A stretch of DNA of 63,125 nt, filler included, from Stramenopiles sp. TOSAG23-6 (taxonomy: Eukaryota): NCBI GenBank assembly GCA_900128565.1. It is 26 parts of 26 records of this genome, joined end to end, with 100 filler letters (N's around TTAATTAATTAA, not from the genome) between each part and the next. Parts side by side here need not be neighbours in the genome. Positions count along the whole stretch, not along the records: positions 48,700 to 51,021 come from LT638127.1; 25 more parts are not named here. The stretch is one strand, 5' to 3'. Shown in pieces: positions 24,484-55,865 of the stretch. Under the pieces are notes generated by a model. The model had not been told where the DNA came from and did no database searches. It saw only the letters and a list, made by a program, of their open reading frames with translations. Every line of letters starts with the position of its first letter. Position 1 is the first letter of the stretch. The position numbers were made by a program, and so were the translations under genes.

Positions 24484-26644
24484 ATACTGTGTCTTTGTAC
24501 AAAAGCTTTTAGATGAACTCTGATTTCGTCTGGGATAAATTCTGGTGCGGCTACGCTGTCTAAGAGAGCAATTGATATTTGTAAAGCATCCATTTGCCAT
24601 AGCTTTGCTAATGGCAAGGAAAATCGACATCGTTGGCTAAGAAATATGATTTCAGCCAATTGGTGTCTTAAACGTCGAAGAGTGATAGTGGTGCTATGAA
24701 ATGCGCCCAACACCCAACTCGAATAAGTGTCGTCGTCATTATTCGAATTTGGAATATACTTGTTTAGACTTGCAAGAACTTCTTGACTACATCCTTGAAA
24801 TATTTCTGCGAAGGTAACAATGGCACCGTCAGCAGTAGAGAGATCTGCTTGTCGAACAGATTCTTTTGGTGTCCATGTATTTTGGAAAAATATTTCAAAA
24901 AAAATTCGTTAGGTACGAAATTTCGTATGAAAAATAAATTCGAATTTGAAAAAAAATAAAACATACATGCTACTGGCTTAAACGCAGACAGAGTCAGTGA
25001 CGCCCAAGAAGAGGACGATACATTTGATATGCCTTCTTGAGTCTCTATTTGCTCCTTTGGTACAAAACTCATACTTGAAAATGATTGAAATTCATCACTA
25101 TCGTCTTGGATAACTCGAGATAGTAAAAAAGCACCATCGACATCATTGTGAAGGCTCTCTGTCGATATTGCACGTTGTATGAGCCACACAGAAAGTTTCC
25201 GTAAAGCTGCAGCATCAAGAGTGGGTACCAATTCGCAACGCAGCCATGTCACATATCGCGATGGTTGCACATCTTCAGGAATCATTGGCAGTAATCCCAC
25301 AATTTTTCTTTGAAGTAGTCCATCACAATCATCTTGGTGTCGATGCCAAAAAGTAGCACTTGCATTTATTAGACCTTTTGAAAGTAAAAGAGACATAACC
25401 CCAGAAGGAGTAGCCGTGCGAAACTGCTGCCATTTTGCAACATCCCAATAAAAATTAGACAAGAAGTTTTTTCCTCCTGCAAATGCAGATTGGGGAGATT
25501 TATTCGGGGCTTCTGCTGATGATGCTAACATACAGAAAGTTGTGTGACGCCGAATTGAAGATTGTAATGCCTTTAAAAGTAACTTTAGTTTATTCTCCAT
25601 ACTTTCTATTTTTACCAGGTTATTTTCCATACTTTCGACTTTTACTAATGGAGCGGTTCTTCCGTCGTATTCAGAATTTTTTTGATGATCCATTCGAAAT
25701 GCTGAAGAGTTATCATTCCTAGATCGTTCTCTGATAGACGTATTATTATTTAATTTACTACGATTAACTCTCGTAGTTAATAATTCAGTTTCATCTTGAA
25801 GTCGACGATGGATTAATTCCAGTACAGCTCGCGTTGCTTTGGCAGATTCTATGTTTGCAGACATACAACATTGAGTAACGTATTCCAATGACTCCAATTT
25901 CAAACTTTTCATCGCATTTTGAAGTTCTTTTAGCCATTTCTTAAAATCGCAAGTTTTATTCGTTTTTTGTTTTTTTTCATTTTCTAGAGAAGAATTACAG
26001 GGACATGAAGATAGTAATTGCCGTAGTAAACATTTCTGAACAATTGCACAATCCATACCTCGTTCCTCGGCAAATTTTCTCGCTGCATCAAAATCATTTG
26101 TAGAAAGTAGTTGTAGTAAACGATGATGTGGAACAGCTTCACAGCAAACTGTAAGCCATAAATTTTGTTTTAGGCTTTTGTGTTTTTGATCTTGTTTTCC
26201 ATTTTGTTTAATTTCAGTTTTACTTTTTTCTAATGATTTACTCTCGCATTTAGATCCGATAACATACATTCTATCCCATCTAAGAGTTGATGCGATAACA
26301 ATACTTCCTGTGGCAACAGGAGCTTCAAAAAGGCAATTCCATTTGTCCCTATACACAGATGTTTTATTGTCACGGCCATTGTATATTCTCGATATTTCCT
26401 TTCTTTCATCTAATGGGTTTTGAAGACACGGCGAAAGTTCCAAAACGACTAAACGACTAAACCCGTTATTTGATTCCATCACATTTCGAGATTTTGCAAT
26501 ACCAGCAATGCGAAGTGAGCTATATCCATTATCAACAGAATCAGAAGGTAAGAGTGTGAACTCCTCTAATCGTTCTTCTTCTTCATCAATTCCATAACGA
26601 GCAATGAGTAACATTGAAGCAGCATCCCACCAACTCAACGTTCC
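24484..26644 (-). CDS. KNTC1: Kinetochore RZZ subunit ROD/KNTC1-like (exons 26644-24967, 24874-24484; partial)
   Basis: EAVPHHRLLQLL...FDAARKFAEERGMD...VQK, WQQFR...GLINASATFWHRH and WLRCELVP resemble blocks I recall from KNTC1; GT-AT intron 24966-24875 keeps the frame. Confidence 0.75.
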
Positions 26645-26846: not shown

Positions 26847-29177
26847 AGCTTGCAATATTAGAAAAAGAGGCAATGGAAAAGGAATTGCTCGCGAAAGAAG
26901 CCGCAAAGGCATTGACAGAAGAGGAAACAGAAAAACTATTATTACCATTGGCAAAGAATGCCTTAAAGTTGTATAAAATTGAAGAAAAGTCAGCTAAACG
27001 GAAGTTGGCTGAACTAAAAGCAATGAAACCACCAAACAAGGAGAAAATAGAAGCCGCCAAGAAAGCTTTAGGCATAATACAAAACAAAATTAAACGAACC
27101 GAAGCTGAAGTTGAATTAACCATAGAATCAGAAAAATCGTCGGAAGATGTCGAGAAAGTTATCAAAGATTTAGAAAAAGCACAAAAAAACAATGATCGCG
27201 CAAAAGTAGAAAAACATAAAGCTTTGGAAGCTGCGGCAGCAGATCCAACCAACAAGGAATTACAAGCAGCTGCAATGAAAGCAACTGAAAAAGAAGAAAT
27301 TTTAGAGAGGAAAAATCTGGAAGTTGATGCAAATTTGGTGACAGCTGTCGCAAAAGCCAAAAGATCTAGCGATGTATTATATGGAACAAAGGCTTCAAAT
27401 AAAGCATTCGACGCATTGAATACCGCAGTAAAAGAAGCCGCCGAAGCAAAAACTGCTTCAGATGCGAGCCCAGATAATCAAGAATTGAAAAAAGCTAGCG
27501 AAATAGCAGCGGAAAAAGTCAAAACTTCAAAAAAAGAAGCAATTTTACTCAAAGAATTGGCAAAGGCGTCACGCAAAGACCAGAATAAAGCAGACATTGT
27601 TTCACTTAAAGTCGAGGCTGCTAAAGCAAAGCGTGTCAAGGCAAATGCAACAAAGAAAAGAGCAGCCGAGGCTAAGGAAAGTGTAAAAAACAATCCGAGC
27701 GCCGAAGAAAGAAAACGCGCTACCGAGTATGCAGTATCAATGGAGTATAAAATGGAAAAAAGTGCTGAAGATGGCGTGAGAAGAAAACTTGCAGCTGCAG
27801 AGGAAGCAAAGTTAAAATTAGCAGCCGATCCTAATAATAAAGCATTGAAAGATGCAGCTGAAATAGCTGAATTAGTGGCAGAGGCGTATGTATTTGCAGA
27901 TAAAAGATATGCAGTTCCGGATGTATCTTTCGATGACGAGGTAATGAAGCAAGCAAAAGAAGCGGTAGAAAATGCGACAGAGCAATTGGAGAAAGACCCA
28001 GAAAATAAAGCGTTACAAGACGAAGTTAAAAAAAAGAAATTACTAATTCAAGAGGCTAAACTTAGACCACCACCAAATATGGCAAAAGAAATTAAAACCA
28101 AGAAAAAAGAAGTAAAAAAATTAAAAAAATTGAAAGAAAAGGTCAAAGAGGCATTAGCAAAAAATCCAGAAAATAAAAAATTACAAGAGGAATTAAAACA
28201 AATGAAAGAAAAGGCTAAAGTTGCTGAGGAAGACGAAATTAGTTCAAAAAAAAACATCGATAAAGTTGAAGCTCTTGTGGAAGCAGAAAAGGTAGCCGAT
28301 GTAGCAACAAAAAAAATTGAAGCTGCCAAGGCGGATCCTGATAATAAGTCAAAACAAAAAGAAGCCAAAAAGGCAATAAAAAAGGCCGAAGAAGCAGAAG
28401 CGGAAACGATAAAGGCTAGTGTAAAAGAGGATTTAAAGGCTTCAAAAGACGCTGTTACTAAAGCAAAAGAACATGCAAAAGAAGCAAAAACAGCTGCAGA
28501 TACTGATCCAGGTAATAAAGAGCTGCAAAAAATAGCTGAAAATGCTGATACAAAAATTATTGAAGCTGAAGAAGAAGTTTACGAAGCTGAAAAGGCTGAA
28601 ATTGAAAATGAATTAAAAGAAGACAAGACAAAAGCAGTAGAAGCAGCGATAGAATCCGATGCCGAGCCAGAGAACGAGCAGCTGCAAAGTATAGCAGAGA
28701 AATCTGCAAAACAACTTGAAAAGACGAAGGTTGTGACAGCGGTAAAAAAAACTAAAAAGAAATTGGAAAAAGCAAAACATGCTCTAACATCTGATCCCGA
28801 AAAGAAACAAAAAGCAAAAGACGCTCTAGCAGCTGATCCCGACAATGAAGAGAAAAAAGAAGCAGTGGCAAAAGTAGAAGAAGAGATGAAAGTAGCAGAA
28901 AAGGAGTCAAAAGAAGCAGAGGAAGAGTTAAAAGTAGAAGAAGAAGAGCTCGTTGTTGTTGTCAACCCAGTTGCTGGTGCTAAGGTAAAGAAAGCAAAAC
29001 AAAAACCAAAAGAAGCAAGGGACGCTGCAGATGCCGATCCAGAGAATAAAGAGTTGCAAATTAAAGCAGAAGAAGCTGAGAAAGAGTATGAAAAGGTCAG
29101 AGAAGAAGCTGTAAAAGAAACGATGCAAATCATTGATACATCCGAACCAACAGAACCAGCTCCATCAGAACCAGCAC
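26847..29177 (+). CDS. Second, near-identical copy or allele of the DPxN-repeat protein contig
   Basis: Matches 14663-17005 except for clustered substitutions and a 12-nt indel near the 3' end. Confidence 0.9.
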
Positions 29178-34216: not shown

Positions 34217-35124
34217 ATGGTACGTAACCCTTCAACATACACTCCAGTCCGTGGATGTTCTCTGATGCGTAACGATTTTTTTTTTATGTTTTTATTTTTT
34301 GGTGAAATAGTTTGATTTTCTTGTTCTTGTGGTGAAAATAAATCTCTAATTCTTTCATTATAAATTTCTAAATACGAAATTTCAATGGACACGAAATTCA
34401 AAGTTTCATCATCAGATATATTTGTTGGTATGTCCTGTGCTGCTGACTGGACATCAATATCCGCTGACGTAGAACAAATATATCTTGTTTTATCTCTTTC
34501 AAATAAAGCGCGACATATACGTGGAATTAAACCAATTTTATTACTTTGTCTTTGACCATTTTTCTTTTCTTTGGTACAAAATTCTGTACCTATGTCTTCA
34601 CCAAACATTGTATATGTCTTTCCAGATCCAGTTTGTCCATATGCAAACATGGAACAGTTATATCCTTCAAACGCATTTTCTAAGATGTAATTTCCTAAAT
34701 CATTAAAAATATCTTCTTGTGATGCAATATTTGAAGCATAGGGATGTATTAATTGTTCTTGTGTGTCAATATCAACACTTTGTGACGATTGAGACTCGAT
34801 TTCAGGGGAAGAATAAGAAAAATCAAAATTGAACGTTCTTGTCAATCCTTTCAATGATTCCATTATATCTATACTTTCATTTCTGTTTGTTGTGTTTGGA
34901 ATATTTGCTTCATCTAAAGCGGATGGCTCAACAATTATTGTACTTTTACCTGACATTGTACAGATATTTCTCGCACCACCAGCGATCTCTCTAGCATTAA
35001 GCGGTCGAACTCTTACAGCAACCTGTACAGCAGATGAACTTGAATCCAAATGTACACTCGGAGTAGAATCAGATACAGATGGTTGCATTGTTAATAAAGA
35101 AGAATTTACTGTAACATTACTCAT
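34217..35124 (-). CDS. Kinesin-3 (KIF1/KIF14-like) N-terminal motor, first exon
   Basis: VQVAVRVRPLNARE, FNFDFSY, FAYGQTGSGKTYTMFG, SYLEIYNERIRDL and LRIREHPRTGVYVEGL. Confidence 0.9.
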
Positions 35125-40601: not shown

Positions 40602-41270
40602 TTATTTATCTTTGTCTCCTATCTGAGATTTTTCAAGTTCAAGAAGAAATAAATTGAAATTTCGCTTTCTCACTTCATCATTTTTCTCGGGAAACATGAT
40701 ATATCCATCATAACCATATTTCATGTATATTGTGAAAAATATTTTTTAAAGAAAAAATGTTAGGTACGAATTTTCGTACAAAAAGAAAAAACACGATGAC
40801 AACGTATATATGCTCGTTCCAGTTGCCATGCTCCTTCTCTGTCACCGGAACAATTGCCTCCATATTTTTCACCTCGCTTTGGATCTGGACAAAATTTAGA
40901 GCAGCTTTTCGTCCGACCTTGAAAATTAATACAAACCATTTGAATCTTATTTAAGAAGTGTTTTGCTAAAGTTTCCTGTATTGTGAAAGAACAATGTTTT
41001 TAGTAAAAAAACGTGAGGTCTGATTTTTTTACGTAAAAATAAAATTCAAAAAAATTCAAAATATTTTGTTAGGTATGGAATTTCGTACTAAAAAAAAAAA
41101 AAAAAATTCAAATTCATGATGAAAACATATATTGATACTGTCGAAAGCTTTCCAAGAAGGATATATTCGAATGAAAATATTTTTTTGTGGTATAAATGCT
41201 TCTTCTAAATCAAATTGCTCAATCCTCGCCTTGTTAGTAAATTTCAATACAACTTTTTGCCAAGTCGAGT
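40602..41270 (-). CDS. Hypothetical protein (exons 41270-41131, 40975-40808, 40724-40602) with AT-AG and AT-AC introns
   Basis: Removing 41130-40976 and 40807-40725 gives one open frame: ...FDSIN|ETLAK...ERAY|MKYGYDGY...*. Confidence 0.65.
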
Positions 41271-41858
41271 GTGTATTTTGGAAAAATATTTCAAAAAAAA
41301 ATCGTTACGTACAAAATTTCGTACGANNNNNNNNNNNNNNNNNNNNNNNNNNNNNNNNNNNNNNNNNNNNTTAATTAATTAANNNNNNNNNNNNNNNNNN
41401 NNNNNNNNNNNNNNNNNNNNNNNNNNTTTTGGAAATACACATTTTTTTTTTTTTTTGAATTGTATCAAAAAAACTACTTACAATACATTGAATAGTACTA
41501 TAAAACCAACAAACGATAGAATTGAAATTTGTATCAAAAACTTCATATATTACACAACTACACAACGTATTCTTTGTAGTTATTTGTATATTGTTTTTCA
41601 TTTGTCTCAATGTTCAATTTGTTCTATTTTTTTTGTAAAAAAAATCGTTAGGTACAAAATTTCGTACGAAAAAAAACATTCAAAATTGAAACCTAACACA
41701 CATGACAGTCCATTAACCCTAATTGAACATTCTATATCAAAATATCAAAATTTCATACAAAAACAATTCAAATTTATTCTTGAAATTCATCTACATCACT
41801 TTTAGGTTTTTAGGTTTTTAGGTTTACATATAAAAAAAATTCAAATTTAAATTCAAAT

Positions 41859-43346
41859 TTATTCTTCAGGTTCAACTACTACATCACTTTTCAATTCACC
41901 ACAATCTGCAATCACAATGTCATTGACGGGGCAATCCTGAGCACCTTTTTCAGTATTTTCAATTTTACGAATAATATCCATACCTTGAATCACTTCACCA
42001 AACACAACATGTTTACCATCTAAATGAGGAGTAACGGTTGTTGTAATAAAGAATTGAGAACCATTTGTATTCGGTCCAGCATTCGCCATGGATAACAAAC
42101 CTGCTTTGGTATGTTTTACTCGAAAATTCTCATCAGCAAATTTAGCACCATAAATACTTTTACCACCAGTACCATTATGATTTGTGAAATCTCCTCCTTG
42201 ACACATAAAATCTTTAATGACGCGATGAAATTTGCTGCCCTTATAATGCAAATCATCACCTTTTTCGCCGGTACACAAAGCACGGAAATTCTCAGCTGTT
42301 TTTGGTGTTGTATCACCATATAGTTGAAATGTCACTCGGCCAAGTGATTCTCCTTCACTTTCCATATCAAAGTAGACCTTTGGTCCCGAGTGAATATCCG
42401 AAATTATTTGAGATTTTTCATTATACATACTCACTTTTTCAAATGCTCCGCCAAATTTCGCTTTTGCATTTTTCTTTTCTTGTAGAATTTTTTTCTTAAG
42501 AAGATCATACTCTTTACGAACAGCTTTATTTTGAGGATCTAATTTAGCGGCTTGTAAAAGATCAACTCTTGCTTGAGATAAAAGGCCAAATTTAGCTCTT
42601 GCGCTTCCTCTTCTATATAAAGCCTTGATATTGTTTTCTTCCCCCGTCATGGTCAAAACTTCAGTTGCCTTTGCAACTGCTTTTCCGTATTCTTTTTGTT
42701 TTAAGAGTGCAGCTGCAGCATTCAAACGACACGAGACACATAAATTGTGAACCTCCTTCTCAGACGCAGATGGGTCGCTTTCCGTCTGAAATGTTTCTGG
42801 ACCTTTGCCAAGAAGATCAGATACCAATTCAAGTGCTGCGTCCCACTGTTGAGTTGCTTGTAAATAATTTTTCATTTTAAAAGAATCGTTACCAGCAGTT
42901 TTCTTTTTACTAGCGGCAACAATTTTTTCACTTGTTGACATTTCCCACTTACTTTTCTCTTTAGGGGCAAAACCTAAAAGTTCACAGTCAAAGACGAGAG
43001 TAGCACCACCAGGAATCTTTGGAGGAGATCCATTCGCACCATAACCATAGTCACTTTTAATGACCAAATTAGCTCTCTCTCCAACCTTCATGCTTGCGAA
43101 ACCAAGATCCCATCCTTTAATTACACGACCTTGACCGAGTTGAAACTTAAAAGGATCATTTCTGTCACGAGATGAATCGAACTTGGAGCCATCTGACTCT
43201 AACGTACCTGTATAATGAGCAGTCACTTCGTCACCAGCTGGAGGAGATTCTCCAGTACCCTCGACCAAAACTTGTTTAATAACACCACCATCTCCACTGA
43301 TATCGACTTCACGGAGAACTGGAAGAGTTTCGTTTGATGTACTCAT
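41859..43346 (-). CDS. Dual-family immunophilin: FKBP - TPR - cyclophilin (FCBP type), complete and intronless
   Basis: FKBP ([31 protein letters not shown]), TPRs (KALYRRGSA) and cyclophilin ([40 protein letters not shown]). Confidence 0.96.
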
Positions 43347-43456
43347 AGTATTGTATATTTGTTATTGTATATTGCGTATTCTTTGTTATCCTTTAATTAG
43401 TGTTTGACAAAATTACTGGCGTCAAAATTACTCATATATGCTCAGTACCAAAATCG

Positions 43457-43536
43457 AGTCGAAAACCTAGGTTTACACGAAAAAGGAAAAGTTGAGAACC
43501 TAGGTTCTCAAAAGTAAAAAACCTAGGTTTTCGACT
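43457..43536. promoter_or_regulatory. Nested palindrome array (3 x AACCTAGGTT) upstream of the FCBP gene
   Basis: Perfect 18-bp inverted repeat (43457-43474 / 43519-43536) enclosing a perfect 20-bp palindrome (43492-43511). The structure is certain; its function is inferred. Confidence 0.55.
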
Positions 43537-44142
43537 GATCCAATTCTCAAGTCAAACCTACGTTTTCAAACTAACTTCTTCTGTCAAAACGTACTAACAC
43601 TTTCTTTCTCTTCACGAAACCATTCTATGATATTGTTTGTCAAAAGTTTCAAAACCTGTGCTACGTAAACGCTTTTTATGATATTACTGCTTCGCAATAA
43701 TAAGGAGCAATCGCATACTCCAACCATATTCAACTACTTTCCTTTTGACTTNNNNNNNNNNNNNNNNNNNNNNNNNNNNNNNNNNNNNNNNNNNNTTAAT
43801 TAATTAANNNNNNNNNNNNNNNNNNNNNNNNNNNNNNNNNNNNNNNNNNNNTATGTTTTGTATTTTTTGTATTTTTTGTATTTGTTGTATTTTTTGTATT
43901 TTTTGTATTTTTTGTATTTTTTGTATTTTTTATATTTGTATCCAGATTGTTATCATATATGTAATATAGAAACATATTTGAATTTTTTCATTGTTTATTG
44001 TTAGGTACAAAATTATAATAGTAAATAGATTGGAATAAATGGTAACAATTTATAAACGAGGCGTTAAAAAAAAAAAAATGTTTAGGTACAAAATTTCGTA
44101 TGAAAAAATAAAATAAATTCGAAATTCGAAATGTAAACGCAC

Positions 44143-44759
44143 ACAATATCAACAACTTTCATACAACTTGAATATAAATTTGGATGATCCTTTTGTGTTA
44201 TTGGATGATGAACCATCGATGATACATCGTCAAATTCATCTATATTACATTCAGCACCTAAAGAATTTTGACTGGTTTGTAAGCGTAACACTCGACCTAA
44301 TAGCAAAGCGTCACAAATTTCATCTGGATTAGTTTTGATTTTGTTTGAATTGTTGGATAGTGTCTTTTTTATGCAACTACATTCGACCCGATGATTTGCT
44401 TTCCAATCTAATCTCTGGCAGGTTTTACTACAATAAAACACTTGTTTACATGATGCACAACGTAAAAGATTCATGTCCGATGAGGGTTGTGTCCAGCAAT
44501 AGTTACAGCGACTATTCCAAATTCTGTTGTGTAGAATAGATGCACTAGGTTGTGTATTTAAAATGATCTCTCCAGGTTGAAAAGTCCTAGTTGTAAACAC
44601 ACAACGACCTCGACCTTTGACAACTTTTGTTTTGAGATCATGCTTCTTTAGTAAAGACTCCCATCGTGAACAATTCAAGTCTTGTGGAATTTGAGAATTA
44701 TGTATTGCTCTTTGTGCAATAGGGTTGTCAATTGTAAAGTTATTCTTTTGAAATTTCAT
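44143..44759 (-). CDS. SMYD-family SET/MYND lysine methyltransferase, first exon
   Basis: GRGRCVFTTR..QPGEII, CNYC...LLRCASCK..YCSKTCQRLDW..H..EC. Confidence 0.9.
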
Positions 44760-45142
44760 TTTAGACTTTTATCGTATCAAACATAGCTAAACTTATGCAA
44801 TTTTTTCGTTCGTGTGCTCAAAGCTGATACCAAATGATAAAAGTACAATGTTGCTTTACACCTTACAATACAATATTTGTATGTATGTTGTTATTATTAC
44901 CTATTGTACTATTATGGATTTTATTAATATACAAATAGGTAGGAAGGTCCTACTGAAGTTGTGTGTGAAGTTGTGTTGTATGTTCAGTCAAATTTTAATT
45001 TTACCGGTACCGGGTATCGTACCTAGTCAACTTTTTTTTTTCTGACCGTTTCGTTGTAGTTAGGGTATCAAAAAGATTTATCTTTACCTCACTTCAAACG
45101 ACGTCAAGATTATTTCTAAGCTGTTCAACTAAATATATCAAT

Positions 45143-45714
45143 ATGGAACAAATGATATTACTACAACACCGTCATAATGATTTGAGAATGCATGCGAAAT
45201 TTCAGAGTAATATGTCCGTAAGTATCATGCGTATTATAGAAAACCATCTTTGAAAAATGTATCCTCTTTTTTTCATAATCTTCATTATTAACTTTATAGT
45301 ATGATACAAACGTACTATATCAACAATATCATAAATTAATAATACAAATTATCAATAAAATTCCTACTATATATATTCATTATACTACAGGAAAGTGAAC
45401 TTTGGCAAGTCACAAAATCAGCTTCTAACCTTGGTTCTGCTGACCGTGCCATGGGAGGGCGTAGGTATTTGACATCATCTGCGTCAAGTGTGGTTGGCGG
45501 CGAACTTGTCACAGACTACTGCAACCGTGAACCAGGTAAGCTAAATGTAAAGGCACTATTTAGACATACTTCGTTTACACATTGGCAAAGGAGAAATGCC
45601 GACTGGTACCGATATATGGACAACCCAATACCAACTAAAAGTCCTATGAAACTCGCCTTTCACTGTACAGAAAAACGTCATGCCCGACCAAAAATACCAA
45701 AAGTACCAAAGTAA
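45143..45714 (+). CDS. Small hypothetical protein (exons 45143-45217, 45391-45714) with a conventional GT-AG intron
   Basis: GTAAGT...TACAG intron 45218-45390 joins two exons in frame (25 + 108 codons). Confidence 0.6.
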
Positions 45715-46275
45715 AGGTACAATAAAAGTATGGCTATACTATTATAATGCAAAATTGGAAAGTAGATATTATTTAACATTTTAATTGTTGACTCGAGGAA
45801 TGTGGTTTTAGTGTCAACAACATATATCTTTTGAAAAAATATATATAGCAATCAAGTATATTTATTATAAAATTGTACATAAATTGAGAAATACTATGGA
45901 GAAGCTTTTTTGCATTTTATCTCCGGCGTTTTTAGCCTTAATCAACCACTTCTTTGCTTTTTTCTGTGTATTGAGCAACTAACGGAGATTCAATTCTATT
46001 TTTTTTCATCCGCGATCACCACTTAAATTCCAAAATTTGGAGATTTCGCATCTAGATTTTTTTTTTTCGTAGTAAAGTTTGTACCTAACAATTTTTTTTA
46101 AATACTTTTTCACAATACACACTGCAATGGACAAAAATTCACTATTGTATAAAGATAAAAAAGGATGTCCCTCAGNNNNNNNNNNNNNNNNNNNNNNNNN
46201 NNNNNNNNNNNNNNNNNNNTTAATTAATTAANNNNNNNNNNNNNNNNNNNNNNNNNNNNNNNNNNNNNNNNNNNN

Positions 46276-48599
46276 CGGGGCAATTAGTGGGTGAAGCATC
46301 ATCTGATAGGACAACTTCATCTTTTGCTGAAGGGGGTTGGGGGAAAGAATTTATTAAATTAAGAAATGATTTAGCAACGACAGAATACGTTGACTTGAGT
46401 TTAGAACAAAGAGTTTTTATTGTAGAGATATTATCAACTTTTATTACTGAAAGTGGTGTGATGCGAGCATATTTAAGAAATTCACTCGAGCAAAGTGTGA
46501 AACTAGCCGCTCGAAAGCGAAAAGAATATTCAACAATATTAAAAATTGCTGCAGATTCAAAGAAAAAAAATTATGCGGACCAAAAGCTACATCGTCAACA
46601 AATGATTCAAAATGTGAAGGAAAATGATACACAATTAATTGCTGAAGCGAAATGTAACAATTTATCTCAACAAGAAAATAGTGCCAGTAAAGATTCAATG
46701 ATTGATACTACTAAAATGTGTGGCAAAGCTGAACGTGGAAGCAGTACATGTAGTTTTGGCAGCACTAGTAGCGATTATCATAAATCATTCAATGTGTCTC
46801 TTAGTGCTATTCAAATCGAAGCCAAAGCAGAGCTTGATGCGAGGTATAATATTCTCCAGGAGTATGTCGGTTGTTTACGTCGTACTCCAATTGGTTGCGA
46901 TAGAGATTTTAGANNNNNNNNNNNNNNNNNNNNNNNNNNNNNNNNGATTTTAGAGAATACTGGTTGCTTGGTGGTGACATAAGTCGCATAGTGGTGAAGA
47001 TATTACCTAAAAAATGCCGACCACCTTTAATACTGAATGAGTTTGTACGTTTTCATCATGTATTTCAATTTTTTTTTTTGTACCAAATTTTATAATTAAC
47101 AAAAAAAATGAAATTTGACATATCTTTTACTACATATGGCGAAGAAGTTAGAAAACGCCCAGGTCGTAAAAAGAGAGCTAAAAAAATTTCAATTGTAAAA
47201 AAGGAAAAGAAAGTGTCTGATACAAACAATAAAAAAAAAGTGAATAGCGATAGTGATGATGATGATGATGGGGAGACAGAAAGTGATGACGATATGGATA
47301 GTGATCCTGATAATGGTAGCGACAGTGAACACCAAGTAGATGAGCCGGTGTTGAGTAACTATCTTACAATTATGGCTGAACGTGAAGCGAACCCTCTGCC
47401 GTCTCCCAAAGCCCCCCCTGGTCCAATGAGTATCGATCCTATCCGCTGGATTTCAATTGAAACTGAGAAAGAATTTGATGATCTTATCGAATCTTTACGA
47501 TACAAAAAAGAATTTAAAAAAAAACAATTCTGAAGTATTGAATAAACAGAAAAATGTTGGAAATCTCAAAGAAACGAAGAAGAATCGAAGAAAAACTTGC
47601 AAGAAACGTAAATCATATCCAAAAGAATATTTATCATATGCAACGCAATTATTAACTGTATGTGGTCACAGTCTTGTTTCAAAATTACTGGAAGCAAAGA
47701 ATAAAGATCCGTCGAAAACCTGGCAATTTCCCAGCGATAGTAACGAAAATAGTCCAAAAAAATTAGAAATACATTTAGGAGTGAATCGCCTTCGCGCAGA
47801 GTTATTAGATGTAGAAAATTCTTTACCAGCATCTCTTGTCGATGCGTATGGCCCAATTGGTACTCCTGAAGCTCGTCAATTGTGGCAGGATAAAGTTTGC
47901 TCGGCTAGTAATGTAGAAACATTTGTGGATCTAATTGTTGCTTTAGAATTGGGTGTACATAGAGACCAATTAAAAAGTTTTTGGAAGCCGTCTCGAAAAT
48001 TACAAAATATTTTTATTGATTTGAAGGAAGCTGAGGATTTTATCAATAAAAATGCCAAAGACAGAAGAAAATATACGAAGCAGATTCCAACCATTGAGGA
48101 TAGTACATCTGAAACAAAACCTAGTTTAAATTCTGATGTAAAATTGGATACAATAACGCCGAATGATGCAAAATCTAGTATTGTATTGTCCAAACTTGAA
48201 GAAGAAGCAAAAAAAATAACTGATGAAAAAACGTCTAAATTGTTAGAGACTCACACAATTTATGCTTCACTTTTCGAGGCTATTTGGAGTCTTGATGAAG
48301 CTATAACTTATCCTAAAGCAAAGGCTATTTCAAGATCTATTGGTACGAATGATCGACCTACTAGTTCATCTCGCACGACTTCGACGTCTAGTGCAACTGG
48401 AGATGATTATGGGTTTAGTTTTGAACATGTAGGCAATGCTGCTGATGATTACGAAGGAGCTTCTTGGGGTAATATTGAAGATATTGAACCTAGCTATATA
48501 ACAACTGACGGTATTTTGAATCATATAAAGAATGAAATGCGAAAAACAGAAGCTTGGCAAATTACCCAAAGATCATCAAGAGCGAAGGATACGACCATG
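46276..48599 (+). CDS. DDT/WHIM-WSD-type chromatin protein fragment (intron 47045-47137; apparent frameshift near 47500)
   Basis: EYVDLSLEQRVFIV (WHIM1-like), RRTPIGCDRDFR..YWLLGG (WSD-like), LRAELLDVENSLP and WQDKV. Confidence 0.65.
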
Positions 48600-48796
48600 N
48601 NNNNNNNNNNNNNNNNNNNNNNNNNNNNNNNNNNNNNNNNNNNTTAATTAATTAANNNNNNNNNNNNNNNNNNNNNNNNNNNNNNNNNNNNNNNNNNNNA
48701 CTCATGCGCGATATTCTCAGATATAAAAAATATCATTACAATAGTGAAAAGAATTCAAGCAATTGTTGTAGAAACACCACACAAACAACTTATTAA

Positions 48797-51021
48797 ATGT
48801 CTTTGCGTCGACTTGTCGAAACAACTCCATATTTTTACACTCTTGATGCAGCGTGGCAAGCAATAAGTACTGGAAAGTCGGCAAATATCTCTTCTTTTAT
48901 TTCGTCTGTTGTTTCAATATCTCCAAATGATCGAATTAATATGTGGCTCAATAAAAGTGGTGCGTATGATCTCGCCGCTGCGTCAAATGCTTCAGAGTCT
49001 CTATCGACTAACTCAGATTTTAGTGATTATTACAATCATCTTCGAACTTTGAGTATCAAACAGCTACCTCTGCAACACAGCAAACGTACACAGTTACACA
49101 AAACACAAAGCGAACATAACCCTACTAATGATGAAATTTCCACAGAGTCAAAAACAGACACTACCCCTAACCCTAATCCCCGAAAATTAGTANGAGAACA
49201 AATTGAACGAGATATCAGAAGAAGTGGTGTTACTGGAGGTCTTGTTGAAGTTCTCCGTCGTGTATTATTCGCCTACGTAGAACGTAATCAAGAAGTTGGT
49301 TATAGTCAAGGNATGAACTTTCTTGCTGCACAATGTCTTCATATAAAAATGTCAGAAGANCAAACATTTTGGGTTCTCTCTGGTTTGATGTACGTTTTCA
49401 TAACCCTAACCCTAATTTCCCTAATTTCATTTTTTTTTTTTTATAGTACATGTTGTACCTAACAATTTTTTGTAACAAAAGAAAAATTCACAATACATTG
49501 AAAAAATCCTAGGAATTGATTTTTTTGATAAGGATTTGACTGGTGTATTGGTAGACTGCGCAGCGTGCACACANATATTACATACTAAATATGANTGTTT
49601 ACTGTCAAAATTTGAGACGTCNCACATNCCNTTATCTGGGATTTTAAGTAATATGTTAATGTCTTGTCTGACAAATGTTGTACGTTTTAGTTTTTTTCAA
49701 TTTTTATCTAAATTTNTTTTTCGTACGAAATTTCGTACCTAACAAAAAAAATTAAAAAAAGAAAATATGTTTTCACAATATATGTTCCGACTGAATTATC
49801 AATTATATTTTGGGATTTTTGTTTTATTATTGATTTCAGAATTTTTTCTTTTTCAGTTGTGGTTACATTTTTTGATGCAATTTCTGGTATTATATATTCA
49901 CCTCTACGTTCATCTGATATACGTGACAAATTTTTAAGTGATGACAATTCAAAACATTCAAATTCAAAACATTCAAAACATTCAAATTCAAAACATTCAA
50001 AACATTCAAAACAGTCAAAACATTCAAAAACAATTGAAAATAACATTGTGGATGATGATTTTGTACTTGTAGCTGAAAAACCCATAGANGATGATCATGT
50101 ACTATCAACATCACCTGATATTATATTGTTTGAAATATTGAAAAAATGGCGTAATGTAAAAGTAAAAATTCACAAGTTGAACAACCCTAACCCTAATGAG
50201 AGTGAACACGTCCGACTTGATGAAATGAGCCATTCAATTATTCTTGAGTCTCTTCATCATATTCTCTCATATAAAGATGACAAAGGAAAATTAATGTTAT
50301 CTACTCATAGTATTCATCAATGTAGAGAAAAAGCTTTCATTGAAGTCAATTTATCAAAGAAAGTACACGAAATCAGTCAAAATAATTTTCAACTCTCTCA
50401 NTTAGGCTATTTGGAATCTATTCGCACAACNTTACTATCTGCTCGACGTGGTATCACTTCACCAATATTGTTTACAGCATCTTCATTTTATTTACAACAT
50501 CATTGTAATGTCATTGAAAGGATTAATAAGTTGTTACTATTAATTAAAGAGTTGCATCCTTTTATGAATCAACATGATACAAACACAAACAGGTTAGGTT
50601 TTTTTTGTATGTCCAATGTTGTAAATGATGTAAATGATGATGTAAATAATTCTACTGGTAGAAAAACAAAGTATGAGAATACATATAATACACCAATATG
50701 GAGTGGTGGCTGGAGTTGTTGTGAAGAAGAAAAGTTATTAAAAAATATTGCTTCAACAATATTTTCAGTGTCAACTATTTCATTTCACTCGGAACCATCA
50801 GAAATTCAAAATGTGGATCATCAAAAAAAAAATTCTGAAAATTTTAAATTATTGGAAGACATGAAAAAAGAATTGTTACAGATATCACAATTGATTGAAA
50901 AAGTCATAACAGCTGCACCAGTGTATAGATTATTAACAACTATTGAAGAAAAATTTACCAACACATCTGTAAACCCNAACCCTATAAAAACTAGTCGAAC
51001 TGTAAACCCTAACCCTATAAA
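48797..51021 (+). CDS. TBC-domain Rab-GAP (exons to 49389, 49499-49679, 49784 onward; partial)
   Basis: QIERDIRRS, LRRVLFAY..RNQEVGYSQGMNFLAA, TFWVL and PTELSIIFWDF; GT-AT introns 49390-49498 and 49680-49783. Confidence 0.88.
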
Positions 51022-51121
51022 NNNNNNNNNNNNNNNNNNNNNNNNNNNNNNNNNNNNNNNNNNNNTTAATTAATTAANNNNNNNNNNNNNNNNNNNNNNN
51101 NNNNNNNNNNNNNNNNNNNNN

Positions 51122-54100
51122 ACTCATGCGCGATATTCTCAGATATAAAAAATATCATTACAATAGTGAAAAGAATTCAAGCAATTGTTGTAGAAACACC
51201 ACACAAACAACTTATTAAATGTCTTTGCGTCGACTTGTCGAAACAACTCCATATTTTTACACTCTTGATGCAGCGTGGCAAGCAATAAGTACTGGAAAGT
51301 CGGCAAATATCTCTTCTTTTATTTCGTCTGTTGTTTCAATATCTCCAAATGATCGAATTAATATGTGGCTCAATAAAAGTGGTGCGTATGATCTCGCCGC
51401 TGCGTCAAATGCTTCAGAGTCTCTATCGACTAACTCAGATTTTAGTGATTATTACAATCATCTTCGAACTTTGAGTATCAAACAGCTACCTCTGCAACAC
51501 AGCAAACGTACACAGTTACACAAAACACAAAGCGAACATAACCCTACTAATGATGAAATTTCCACAGAGTCAAAAACAGACACTACCCCTAACCCTAATC
51601 CCCGAAAATTAGTANGAGAACAAATTGAACGAGATATCAGAAGAAGTGGTGTTACTGGAGGTCTTGTTGAAGTTCTCCGTCGTGTATTATTCGCCTACGT
51701 AGAACGTAATCAAGAAGTTGGTTATAGTCAAGGNATGAACTTTCTTGCTGCACAATGTCTTCATATAAAAATGTCAGAAGANCAAACATTTTGGGTTCTC
51801 TCTGGTTTGATGTACGTTTTCATAACCCTAACCCTAATTTCCCTAATTTCATTTTTTTTTTTTTATAGTACATGTTGTACCTAACAATTTTTTGTAACAA
51901 AAGAAAAATTCACAATACATTGAAAAAATCCTAGGAATTGATTTTTTTGATAAGGATTTGACTGGTGTATTGGTAGACTGCGCAGCGTGCACACANATAT
52001 TACATACTAAATATGANTGTTTACTGTCAAAATTTGAGACGTCNCACATNCCNTTATCTGGGATTTTAAGTAATATGTTAATGTCTTGTCTGACAAATGT
52101 TGTACGTTTTAGTTTTTTTCAATTTTTATCTAAATTTNTTTTTCGTACGAAATTTCGTACCTAACAAAAAAAATTAAAAAAAGAAAATATGTTTTCACAA
52201 TATATGTTCCGACTGAATTATCAATTATATTTTGGGATTTTTGTTTTATTATTGATTTCAGAATTTTTTCTTTTTCAGTTGTGGTTACATTTTTTGATGC
52301 AATTTCTGGTATTATATATTCACCTCTACGTTCATCTGATATACGTGACAAATTTTTAAGTGATGACAATTCAAAACATTCAAATTCAAAACATTCAAAA
52401 CATTCAAATTCAAAACATTCAAAACATTCAAAACAGTCAAAACATTCAAAAACAATTGAAAATAACATTGTGGATGATGATTTTGTACTTGTAGCTGAAA
52501 AACCCATAGANGATGATCATGTACTATCAACATCACCTGATATTATATTGTTTGAAATATTGAAAAAATGGCGTAATGTAAAAGTAAAAATTCACAAGTT
52601 GAACAACCCTAACCCTAATGAGAGTGAACACGTCCGACTTGATGAAATGAGCCATTCAATTATTCTTGAGTCTCTTCATCATATTCTCTCATATAAAGAT
52701 GACAAAGGAAAATTAATGTTATCTACTCATAGTATTCATCAATGTAGAGAAAAAGCTTTCATTGAAGTCAATTTATCAAAGAAAGTACACGAAATCAGTC
52801 AAAATAATTTTCAACTCTCTCANTTAGGCTATTTGGAATCTATTCGCACAACNTTACTATCTGCTCGACGTGGTATCACTTCACCAATATTGTTTACAGC
52901 ATCTTCATTTTATTTACAACATCATTGTAATGTCATTGAAAGGATTAATAAGTTGTTACTATTAATTAAAGAGTTGCATCCTTTTATGAATCAACATGAT
53001 ACAAACACAAACAGGTTAGGTTTTTTTTGTATGTCCAATGTTGTAAATGATGTAAATGATGATGTAAATAATTCTACTGGTAGAAAAACAAAGTATGAGA
53101 ATACATATAATACACCAATATGGAGTGGTGGCTGGAGTTGTTGTGAAGAAGAAAAGTTATTAAAAAATATTGCTTCAACAATATTTTCAGTGTCAACTAT
53201 TTCATTTCACTCGGAACCATCAGAAATTCAAAATGTGGATCATCAAAAAAAAAATTCTGAAAATTTTAAATTATTGGAAGACATGAAAAAAGAATTGTTA
53301 CAGATATCACAATTGATTGAAAAAGTCATAACAGCTGCACCAGTGTATAGATTATTAACAACTATTGAAGAAAAATTTACCAACACATCTGTAAACCCNA
53401 ACCCTATAAAAACTAGTCGAACTGTAAACCCTAACCCTATAAANNNNNNNNNNNNNNNNNNNNNNNNNNNNNNNNNNNNNNNNNNNNTTAATTAATTAAN
53501 NNNNNNNNNNNNNNNNNNNNNNNNNNNNNNNNNNNNNNNNNNNACTCATGCGCGATATTCTCAGATATAAAAAATATCATTACAATAGTGAAAAGAATTC
53601 AAGCAATTGTTGTAGAAACACCACACAAACAACTTATTAAATGTCTTTGCGTCGACTTGTCGAAACAACTCCATATTTTTACACTCTTGATGCAGCGTGG
53701 CAAGCAATAAGTACTGGAAAGTCGGCAAATATCTCTTCTTTTATTTCGTCTGTTGTTTCAATATCTCCAAATGATCGAATTAATATGTGGCTCAATAAAA
53801 GTGGTGCGTATGATCTCGCCGCTGCGTCAAATGCTTCAGAGTCTCTATCGACTAACTCAGATTTTAGTGATTATTACAATCATCTTCGAACTTTGAGTAT
53901 CAAACAGCTACCTCTGCAACACAGCAAACGTACACAGTTACACAAAACACAAAGCGAACATAACCCTACTAATGATGAAATTTCCACAGAGTCAAAAACA
54001 GACACTACCCCTAACCCTAATCCCCGAAAATTAGTANGAGAACAAATTGAACGAGATATCAGAAGAAGTGGTGTTACTGGAGGTCTTGTTGAAGTTCTCC

Positions 54101-55865
54101 GTCGTGTATTATTCGCCTACGTAGAACGTAATCAAGAAGTTGGTTATAGTCAAGGNATGAACTTTCTTGCTGCACAATGTCTTCATATAAAAATGTCAGA
54201 AGANCAAACATTTTGGGTTCTCTCTGGTTTGATGTACGTTTTCATAACCCTAACCCTAATTTCCCTAATTTCATTTTTTTTTTTTTATAGTACATGTTGT
54301 ACCTAACAATTTTTTGTAACAAAAGAAAAATTCACAATACATTGAAAAAATCCTAGGAATTGATTTTTTTGATAAGGATTTGACTGGTGTATTGGTAGAC
54401 TGCGCAGCGTGCACACANATATTACATACTAAATATGANTGTTTACTGTCAAAATTTGAGACGTCNCACATNCCNTTATCTGGGATTTTAAGTAATATGT
54501 TAATGTCTTGTCTGACAAATGTTGTACGTTTTAGTTTTTTTCAATTTTTATCTAAATTTNTTTTTCGTACGAAATTTCGTACCTAACAAAAAAAATTAAA
54601 AAAAGAAAATATGTTTTCACAATATATGTTCCGACTGAATTATCAATTATATTTTGGGATTTTTGTTTTATTATTGATTTCAGAATTTTTTCTTTTTCAG
54701 TTGTGGTTACATTTTTTGATGCAATTTCTGGTATTATATATTCACCTCTACGTTCATCTGATATACGTGACAAATTTTTAAGTGATGACAATTCAAAACA
54801 TTCAAATTCAAAACATTCAAAACATTCAAATTCAAAACATTCAAAACATTCAAAACAGTCAAAACATTCAAAAACAATTGAAAATAACATTGTGGATGAT
54901 GATTTTGTACTTGTAGCTGAAAAACCCATAGANGATGATCATGTACTATCAACATCACCTGATATTATATTGTTTGAAATATTGAAAAAATGGCGTAATG
55001 TAAAAGTAAAAATTCACAAGTTGAACAACCCTAACCCTAATGAGAGTGAACACGTCCGACTTGATGAAATGAGCCATTCAATTATTCTTGAGTCTCTTCA
55101 TCATATTCTCTCATATAAAGATGACAAAGGAAAATTAATGTTATCTACTCATAGTATTCATCAATGTAGAGAAAAAGCTTTCATTGAAGTCAATTTATCA
55201 AAGAAAGTACACGAAATCAGTCAAAATAATTTTCAACTCTCTCANTTAGGCTATTTGGAATCTATTCGCACAACNTTACTATCTGCTCGACGTGGTATCA
55301 CTTCACCAATATTGTTTACAGCATCTTCATTTTATTTACAACATCATTGTAATGTCATTGAAAGGATTAATAAGTTGTTACTATTAATTAAAGAGTTGCA
55401 TCCTTTTATGAATCAACATGATACAAACACAAACAGGTTAGGTTTTTTTTGTATGTCCAATGTTGTAAATGATGTAAATGATGATGTAAATAATTCTACT
55501 GGTAGAAAAACAAAGTATGAGAATACATATAATACACCAATATGGAGTGGTGGCTGGAGTTGTTGTGAAGAAGAAAAGTTATTAAAAAATATTGCTTCAA
55601 CAATATTTTCAGTGTCAACTATTTCATTTCACTCGGAACCATCAGAAATTCAAAATGTGGATCATCAAAAAAAAAATTCTGAAAATTTTAAATTATTGGA
55701 AGACATGAAAAAAGAATTGTTACAGATATCACAATTGATTGAAAAAGTCATAACAGCTGCACCAGTGTATAGATTATTAACAACTATTGAAGAAAAATTT
55801 ACCAACACATCTGTAAACCCNAACCCTATAAAAACTAGTCGAACTGTAAACCCTAACCCTATAAA
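51122..55865 (+). repeat. Two redundant copies of the TBC contig (51122-53443, 53544-55865)
   Basis: Same length, sequence and n positions as 48700-51021. Confidence 0.95.

Follow-up and report, generated by a model that had tools for sequence, protein, structure and literature searches.

Which signal would choose the 3' splice site of an intron that appears to end in AT rather than AG? The question is raised by a short intron in a RabGAP-TBC gene of Stramenopiles sp. TOSAG23-6 (assembly GCA_900128565.1), which carries the palindrome GTACGAAATTTCGTAC at positions 49723-49738 and the sequence CTAAC directly after it at 49739-49743. A sequence-only reading of this DNA had described a perfect 16-nt palindrome right before CTAAC, which is present as stated, and had proposed that its folding as an RNA hairpin together with a narrow branch-to-acceptor distance, or a dedicated binding protein, may take the place of AG scanning; a DNA-level site of a mobile element was offered as the alternative. 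The reading favored here, with moderate confidence, is that the palindrome and CTAAC form the middle of a spliceosomal intron (49680-49783) from an abundant family of short, foldback, introner-like elements, and that the hairpin does not fix the 3' site. The window, meaning the whole stretch of DNA that was analyzed, is 63,125 bases long and consists of 26 short contigs of ~2.3 kb each between N...TTAATTAATTAA...N linkers. The contig at 48700-51021, which holds the RabGAP-TBC intron, occurs three times at a 2422-base offset within 48700-55865 with identical sequence, Ns included, and this triplication is probably assembly redundancy.

A degenerate search for the 16-mer (≤2 mismatches, both strands) returned 91 matches, whereas shuffles averaged 0.38 and none of the 100 made reached that number. 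The matches correspond to 49 loci, a number that includes one contig counted three times, and CTAA plus one base follows in one orientation at 39 of the 49. CTAAC itself occurs 129 times in the window and is preceded by TAY at 51 sites (47 distinct), whereas many of the remaining occurrences fall in CCCTAA repeats or coding sequence. Because only 51 of the 129 follow TAY, the earlier statement that CTAAC nearly always stands after the palindrome holds for the intron copies and not window-wide. A palindrome variant with the same flanking 20 bases was also observed at 5262-5277 (+) and 34574-34589 (-), where it is in frame and reads TEFCTK; the host coding regions are unrelated, one of them being a kinesin loop, and a similar variant lies at 1111-1126. 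These in-frame variants could be exonized remnants or footprints of the element.

The aligned sites share one architecture. Family introns are ~100 bases long, lie in many genes and end in AT rather than AG. They start with GTAYGTTTT, continue through ~50 T-rich bases, often with TTCGAATTT, and reach the palindrome and CTAAC; a T- or A-run follows CTAAC, then ATATTTTT, and then the end, (C)CA(A/C)AATAYAT. The family branch-site motif, TACCTAAC, lies just past the element center, and the second A of CTAAC (49742) is the putative branch A. Branch-motif variants (GTAAC, TTAAC and CTAAA) occur in otherwise typical family members at 41270-41326 (-), 47045-47140 (+), 2190-2340 (+), 44086 (-), and 58663 and 59698 (+).

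It is protein homology, together with the reading frame, that places the predicted intron boundaries. Both intron ends were set by hand in 21 copies, the automated boundary scan being too noisy in AT-rich sequence (the window contigs have 22-36% GC). When each intron is taken to run from the first base of GTAYG through the final base of the 3' motif, its removal leaves the longest flanking frames in register in 17 of the 21 copies, where ~7 are expected by chance. The guessed ends are uncertain in all four out-of-phase copies (branch motifs at minus-strand positions 40763 and 41072 and plus-strand positions 7618 and 60420), and the flanking frames are ambiguous in several of them. Pfam continuity was found at three junctions. 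In the kinesin gene (10114-10201), Pfam Kinesin position 101 ends the upstream exon and position 102 opens the downstream exon. In the Glu/Gln-tRNA synthetase gene (4169-4261), tRNA-synt_1c positions 1-15 close exon 1 and position 16 opens exon 2, and PDB alignments likewise have GYLH closing exon 1 and IGH opening exon 2. The third junction (9173-9081) divides an EF-hand loop after its first Asp; the upstream exon breaks off inside an EF-hand match, and the downstream one begins at EF-hand_1 position 11 (a weak match, E 0.061).

For the palindrome-bearing intron, exon 1 of the RabGAP-TBC gene was searched against protein representatives and the best matches were aligned to the DNA. Ortholog P0121 has 15 residues between a conserved LM and WD, and P0122 has 10 residues past an aligned N; both counts equal those of the joined exons 49679|49784. 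A third ortholog, P0126, has one residue aligned at the junction codon of the first TBC intron (49390-49498). No orthologs of TBC exon 3 were found at E 1e-5 or better. Ortholog spacing is thus exact at two junctions, which argues that 49680-49783 is an intron and that 49783 is its last base, the end coordinate that the sequence-only reading had also given.

Orientation points to the level at which the elements are removed. Sites are sense to the longest neighboring open reading frame (ORF) in 41 of 44 cases, and the 3 exceptions lie at contig joins or N gaps. This strict sense orientation argues for removal from RNA and not from DNA. Ciliate-like DNA-level excision was considered and set aside given the orientation together with the donor and branch signals. 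A read check on 7333-9676 used two RNA runs and two DNA runs. Exons of this contig were covered only by the organism's 2015 DNA run; in the RNA runs and the 2024 DNA run, depth was confined to family-repeat bins. No spliced joint was seen, and with RNA cover on the exons nil the check speaks neither for nor against splicing. In the same repeat bins, ~500 contigs from each of two metatranscriptome runs match family intron segments, ~150 of them at ≥99%; these could be unspliced RNA or DNA carry-over.

With these boundaries the 3' end is not AG in 16 of the 17 in-phase copies. The last base is T in 14/17 and C, G or A in one copy each, behind an A at -2 in 17/17. Conservation is strong over the last nine positions of the intron: A(-9) 17/17, A(-7) 16/17, T(-5) 16/17, A(-4) 16/17, C(-3) 13/17, A(-2) 17/17 and T(-1) 14/17. 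An internal AG is passed over in 6/17. One of these, AG 49760-49761, conflicts with the ortholog spacing because its use would add 8 codons. Intron 4169-4261 has no AG between its branch motif and the junction. At the five junctions checked against protein families or orthologs the inferred site is never AG, and the proposal that AG does not choose the 3' site therefore stands. The 5' end is conventional. G1 and T2 of GTAYGTTTT are present in 17/17 and T6-T8 in 17/17, a conservation that is partly ascertained since the copies were found via a loose donor motif. The upstream exon ends in AT in 10/17 copies and the intron in 14/17; only GT...AN boundaries fit all 17 copies.

Spacing is tighter from the T-run than from the branch site. 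The distance from the putative branch A to the 3' end is 33-47 bases with a median of 38; it is 33-38 in ten copies, so the narrow distance described earlier holds for these and widens across all 17. The last T-run ends 9-13 bases ahead of the junction in 15/17. The last 10 bases are A-rich, in agreement with the earlier remark that no pyrimidine tract adjoins the acceptor, though the T-run stands 9-13 bases upstream. The 3' site is most likely set by the terminal motif and by spacing from the T-run and the branch site.

Stem statistics were compiled from 42 distinct copies, with two non-family sites and copies with N in the 16-mer excluded. All six stem pairs are kept in 17 copies, five in 10 and four or fewer in 15. 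Mismatch cells over all eight palindrome positions comprise 25 G-T, 14 A-C and 43 other. The suggestion that variants keep pairing through G-U wobbles accounts for the 25 G-T cells and not for the 14 A-C and 43 other mismatches or for the 15 of 42 copies with at most four pairs. Each transition class is dominated by one position (G5-T12 in 21 copies, A1-C16 in 10), so the mismatch copy counts are not independent events. We read the variants at palindrome positions 4, 5, 12 and 13 as the four decay products of its two CpGs. The two arms differ in conservation. The right arm and CTAAC are near invariant: T18-C25 of alignment A1 is invariant in 42/42, with TAC and CTAAC being the search key, and G is found at palindrome position 13 in 36/42. 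Position 12 is C, the perfect form, in 10/42 and T in 32/42. The left arm is the most variable part (G1 in 26/42, C4 in 28/42 and G5 in 29/42).

Covariation in alignment A1 did not rise above the shuffles. Paired cells made up 72.9% versus 72.5% in shuffles (232/500 as high), the covariation score was 0.120 versus 0.098 (45/500 as high), and one stem pair was changed on both sides (349/500 as high). The RNAalifold consensus structure of 14 complete copies contains 0 pairs. Whole-intron folds clearly beat their own shuffles (z below -3) in 1 of 15, and Rfam gave 0 matches at the gathering threshold across the whole window. Single sequences can fold. The 3' part of intron 49680-49783 folds with the stem at -7.6 kcal/mol (z -1.96), and copy 24875-24966 folds as a rod with paired ends. 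A second weak hairpin, also proposed earlier, appears in a few single-sequence folds and is absent from the consensus fold. Introns with validated junctions have broken stems, with 3/6 pairs in kinesin 10114-10201 and 4/6 in EF-hand 9173-9081. Stem integrity differs between subfamilies: the homogeneous subfamily that starts GTATGTTTTATTT has a mean of 5.4/6 pairs (n = 9) and the diverged GTACGTTTTC subfamily a mean of 3.75/6 (n = 16, one row spurious; one-sided Mann-Whitney p = 0.004). The inference of a working RNA hairpin thus fails the test that was proposed with it, with covariation not above shuffles and an empty consensus structure. The copies give no sign that the hairpin chooses the splice site; a dedicated protein, a terminal motif or spacing may do so.

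The copies have the marks of a repeated element. Those at 4169 (synthetase), 63029 (the gene at the window end) and 24966 (a KNTC1-like gene) are 90-93% identical over their full length and lie in different genes, and the 47 distinct TAYCTAAC sites fall within 63 kb. In the homogeneous subfamily, the opening GTAT(G)TTTT and the AAAATAC before the final AT are reverse complements. Further symmetric blocks lie between the ends, and the palindrome stands at the middle, 46|46 in 24875-24966. The first 4 bases complement -6 to -3 in 81.8% of cells; with the partner slid out of register the figure is 4-59%. Of 52 contig ends, 21 lie within a family hallmark, versus 13% of random 110-base windows. 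In the read check, 4222 contigs from the organism's 2015 DNA run and 3228 from the independent 2024 seawater DNA run were placed on 7333-9676. Depth in the 2024 run is confined to the family-repeat bins with none on exons, which argues against an amplification or assembly artifact. A DNA-level mobile origin of the palindrome, offered earlier as the alternative, accordingly fits a high-copy foldback family with inverted ends better than the RNA reading does, and the family would have moved as a DNA element. For the AT at the exon end and the intron end, a 2-base duplication, insertion at an A|T site and a target preference are equally good explanations. A Helitron-like insertion between A and T was considered; the ends and the hairpin position do not fit what is usually described for Helitrons. 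Searches of metagenome contigs (3'-motif pattern) and prokaryote genome contigs gave only chance matches, none with the family signature, among the matches listed, and viral contigs (right arm plus CTAAC) also gave only chance matches and none with the signature.

In the favored account, the donor (strong and U1-type) and the extended, yeast-like branch site would be read in the ordinary way. Splicing would remove the element together with the AT following ...ATAC, and the frame would be exactly restored because the removed AT repeats the AT that usually ends the upstream exon. The 3' cut would fall two bases past ...ATAC, guided by the terminal motif and by spacing from the T-run and branch. 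The palindrome would be inherited as the dyad center of the element. Its right arm would persist through its place in that branch-site consensus, whereas its left arm would last only in young copies and decay without compensating changes. The 3' motif might be read by an altered U2AF-type factor or through intron-end pairing. On balance the evidence leans toward GT...AU introns genome-wide, an altered 3'-site recognition factor and a hairpin without a role. A bolder version is quite improbable. Here the major spliceosome of the lineage would have no need of AG, and young introns would be rod-folded, with a GUAU/AUAC helix and the central hairpin placing the 3' cut two bases past the C paired to G1. 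Such splicing would be a hybrid of the conventional kind (U1 donor, U2 branch) and a structure-defined kind, and older copies would have come to depend on the linear 3' motif alone.

Several points weigh against the favored account. All counts come from one 63-kb window of related, non-independent copies. GT...AT splicing is argued from protein homology and reading frame, the one stretch checked having had no RNA cover on its exons, and AT...AC boundaries yield the same mRNA in 10/17 copies because the AT is repeated. The left arm is still conserved at 62-90% per position. Stem integrity is uncorrelated with how alike the copies are outside the palindrome (rho 0.18, p 0.47, n = 18), so it is the subfamily contrast that suggests decay with age. 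End pairing is not above shuffles (73-98/500 as high), and the inverted ends are short (4-8 bases). The AT at exon ends could be a target preference instead of a duplication. No transposase was found among the 37 window ORFs scanned, and no empty site was found.

The palindrome could have work to do either as RNA or as DNA. The hairpin could be an RNA element that presents the branch site or measures distance and, with a narrow branch-to-end span, replaces AG recognition. In favor of this, at least 5/6 pairs are kept in 27/42 copies. The stem forms in single-sequence folds of intact copies, the commonest variant is a G-T pair that RNA tolerates (21/42), and elements survive in the sense orientation only. 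This role is nevertheless distinctly unlikely: there is neither covariation nor a consensus structure, the 14 A-C and 43 other mismatch cells stand beside the 25 G-T, the variants at positions 4, 5, 12 and 13 read as CpG decay, introns with validated junctions manage with 3 or 4 stem pairs of 6, and the branch-to-end span (33-47) is wider than the T-run-to-end span (9-13). The zone just 5' of the branch site also binds U2 proteins, and a stem would occupy that zone. A need for the palindrome at the DNA level, as a binding or hairpin-forming site in mobilization that is kept in mobile copies and lost in dead ones, is unlikely but carries some weight. In its favor, the homogeneous subfamily, whose inverted ends are the clearest, has a stem near intact while that of the other subfamily has decayed, and the symmetry center lies at the middle of compact copies (46|46 in 24875-24966). 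However, simple inheritance from a recent master copy predicts the same pattern, the 37 scanned ORFs showed no transposase or autonomous partner, and in cut-and-paste elements the ends rather than the center are usually recognized.

Two further explanations concern the class and origin of the introns. Transformed minor-type (U12-like) introns, with a 3' site set by distance and the last two bases variable, would explain why the last base varies behind a fixed A; GTATGTTTT matches the U12-type donor GTATCCTTT at 7/9 positions, ACCTAAC resembles CCTTAAC, and minor introns with AT-AN and GT-AT ends are treated in the literature. The explanation is very unlikely given G at donor +5 (15/17) and T at +6 (17/17) instead of the defining CC, a branch-to-end distance of 33-47 bases that is far past the usual 10-20, and the lack of any small nuclear RNA match in the window. 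GTATGT is moreover the classic major-type donor, and GTATGT with TACTAAC is the classic major-type pair of yeast. Little credence is likewise given to the view that the copies are unrelated old introns, alike through the strict long signals of a simplified spliceosome with no mobile element involved. Diverged copies do share mostly the donor, branch region, T-run and 3' motif, but unrelated introns would not account for 90-93% full-length identity between copies in different genes, assembly breaks inside copies, or symmetric internal blocks without a known signal role.

Coordinates of the palindrome-bearing intron, its parts and selected family copies in the window
Feature	Position	Strand	Basis
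Palindrome-bearing intron, 104 bases, GT...AT, RabGAP-TBC gene	49680..49783	+	Phase-0 join; ortholog spacing
5' splice site, GTACGTTTT	49680..49688	+	Family consensus GTAYGTTTT
Perfect 16-base palindrome; as RNA a 6-bp stem and 4-base loop; dyad center of the element	49723..49738	+	
Extended branch-site consensus, GTACCTAAC; putative branch A at 49742	49735..49743	+	Branch use putative
Internal AG, passed over; 19 bases past the putative branch A	49760..49761	+	
T-run and terminal motif closing the intron, CACAATATAT	49770..49783	+	
Neighboring family intron of the same TBC gene; left arm of palindrome decayed (ATAGTACATGTTGTAC)	49390..49498	+	In phase
Compact copy, Glu/Gln-tRNA synthetase gene, splits GYLH|IGH	4169..4261	+	Pfam tRNA-synt_1c and PDB alignments
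Copy in kinesin motor domain; stem 3/6 pairs; ends AC	10114..10201	+	Pfam Kinesin continuity
Copy inside EF-hand loop; stem 4/6 pairs	9081..9173	-	In phase; EF-hand matches
Near-consensus copy; palindrome center 46 bases from either end	24875..24966	-	90-91% identical to the 4169 and 63029 copies
Intron 49680-49783 in second contig copy	52102..52205	+	Identical sequence, 2422-base offset
Intron 49680-49783 in third contig copy	54524-54627		Identical sequence

The window genes are eukaryotic (37 ORFs scanned). For an intronless FKBP-TPR-cyclophilin gene on the minus strand (41862-43346), the best match, 88% identical, is a protein whose label begins GSMAST32, and the next named matches, at ~55%, are from oomycetes and diatoms. 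The source is probably a stramenopile of or near the uncultured MAST-3 group, GSMAST32 being read this way by us. Window DNA (41800-51100) is found in a small 2015 set of sequencing runs listed under one organism name and in runs from seawater metagenomes and metatranscriptomes. A family copy on the minus strand (41611-41703) lies about 155 bases beyond the FKBP-TPR-cyclophilin stop codon and is oriented like that gene. The copy begins GTGTGT, its palindrome is intact, and ACAT stands 38 bases past the branch A; it may be an untranslated-region intron or an intergenic copy. At 1859-2100, a succinyl-CoA ligase alpha exon that ends at 1858 is followed by two family branch regions and then by an exon with an ABC-transporter signature, which looks like a misjoin of two genes via the intron repeat.

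Other repeats were also recorded. Telomere-like (CCCTAA)2 repeats occur at 14 distinct sites in the 63-kb window, including 11084, 19729, 49165, 50185, 60158 and 60562 (+) and 5731 (-). At least 8 of them lie in long open frames on the coding strand, where they read NPNPN, often followed by a TGA-containing ...AATGAG, and two are inside family introns (7562 and 49404). Contigs 14663-17005 and 26847-29177 carry near-identical long ORFs (816 and 812 aa) with lysine-rich repeats and no Pfam match, and the 80-base context around 16600 and 28784 is identical. The contig at 55966-58286 is a tandem array throughout, made of 22.8 copies of a 102-base unit at 71% matches, and its GC skew is strongly negative.

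If the boundaries hold in RNA, a free-living marine protist has kept a textbook donor and branch site and abandoned the AG acceptor. Such a system would let U2AF-type recognition, branch distance and intron-end pairing be separated. Gene finders that require AG would break most genes of such a genome, a problem that may extend to uncultured marine stramenopiles generally. The palindrome also carries a practical lesson, that a striking palindrome in a repeated element is due a covariation test before it is read as an RNA signal.

Comparison with known intron classes places the family near, and not within, several of them. It has the frame restoration, GT donor and branch motif of major-type spliceosomal introns, and it departs from them in the 3' AG, found in 1/17. 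U12-type introns have a variable last base and in them position outweighs AG; they differ from the family in donor positions +5/+6 and in branch-to-end distance. The nonconventional introns of euglenids and diplonemids likewise lack an AG rule, and a fold joins their junctions. As far as the available accounts of these introns go, they have no conserved borders or U1 complementarity, whereas the family has a canonical donor and branch motif and no conserved fold. With its conserved borders, 0 consensus pairs and 1 of 15 folds clearly better than shuffles, it falls outside the euglenid type. The literature on GT-AT introns, in its accessible portion, deals mostly with rare minor-type or non-canonical sites and with splice-alignment methods, and names no stramenopile among the matches listed. 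Unusual splice sites go unmentioned in the available parts of the MAST-3 and stramenopile intron literature. A literature search thin on subscription journals, and hence no proof of absence, found no account of introners in MAST lineages.

The closest likeness is to introners, which the available text describes as short intron-generating transposons of marine protists and other eukaryotes (PMC12130899, PMC7789003). The family resembles them in its many near-identical short sense copies in unrelated genes, in candidate inverted ends, in a possible short direct repeat at the borders and in its predicted intron-like removal. A survey of introners reports, in the portion available, both AG and AC 3' sites, and it kept families with unfamiliar sites only where transcript alignments backed them (PMC12130899). 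Unlike the introners described there, the family ends in AT in 14/17 copies and has a central palindrome fused to the branch site. Introners of Amoebophrya, according to the accessible sections of that report, have inverted repeats and 3-5-base direct repeats that overlap the exon-intron borders, and their ends pair into a hairpin; they lack consistent terminal dinucleotides, and U1 was undetected in either strain (PMC7789003). The family may share intron ends able to pair and short direct repeats at the borders, but its ends are uniform, its donor and branch are strong and its end pairing spans only 4-8 bases. In the larvacean Fritillaria borealis, the available text equates non-canonical splice sites with the inverted ends of non-autonomous transposons (10.1101/2025.08.15.670264), and the 3' ...ATAC(AT) of the family similarly mirrors its 5' GTAT. 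That text gives <10% of F. borealis introns as obeying GT/AG at either end and proposes divergent U2AF paralogs in this animal; the protist family has GT in 17/17 and a strong donor consensus, and deviates at the 3' end alone. What is new here relative to known introners is that GT and a strong branch motif are kept and only the acceptor is changed.

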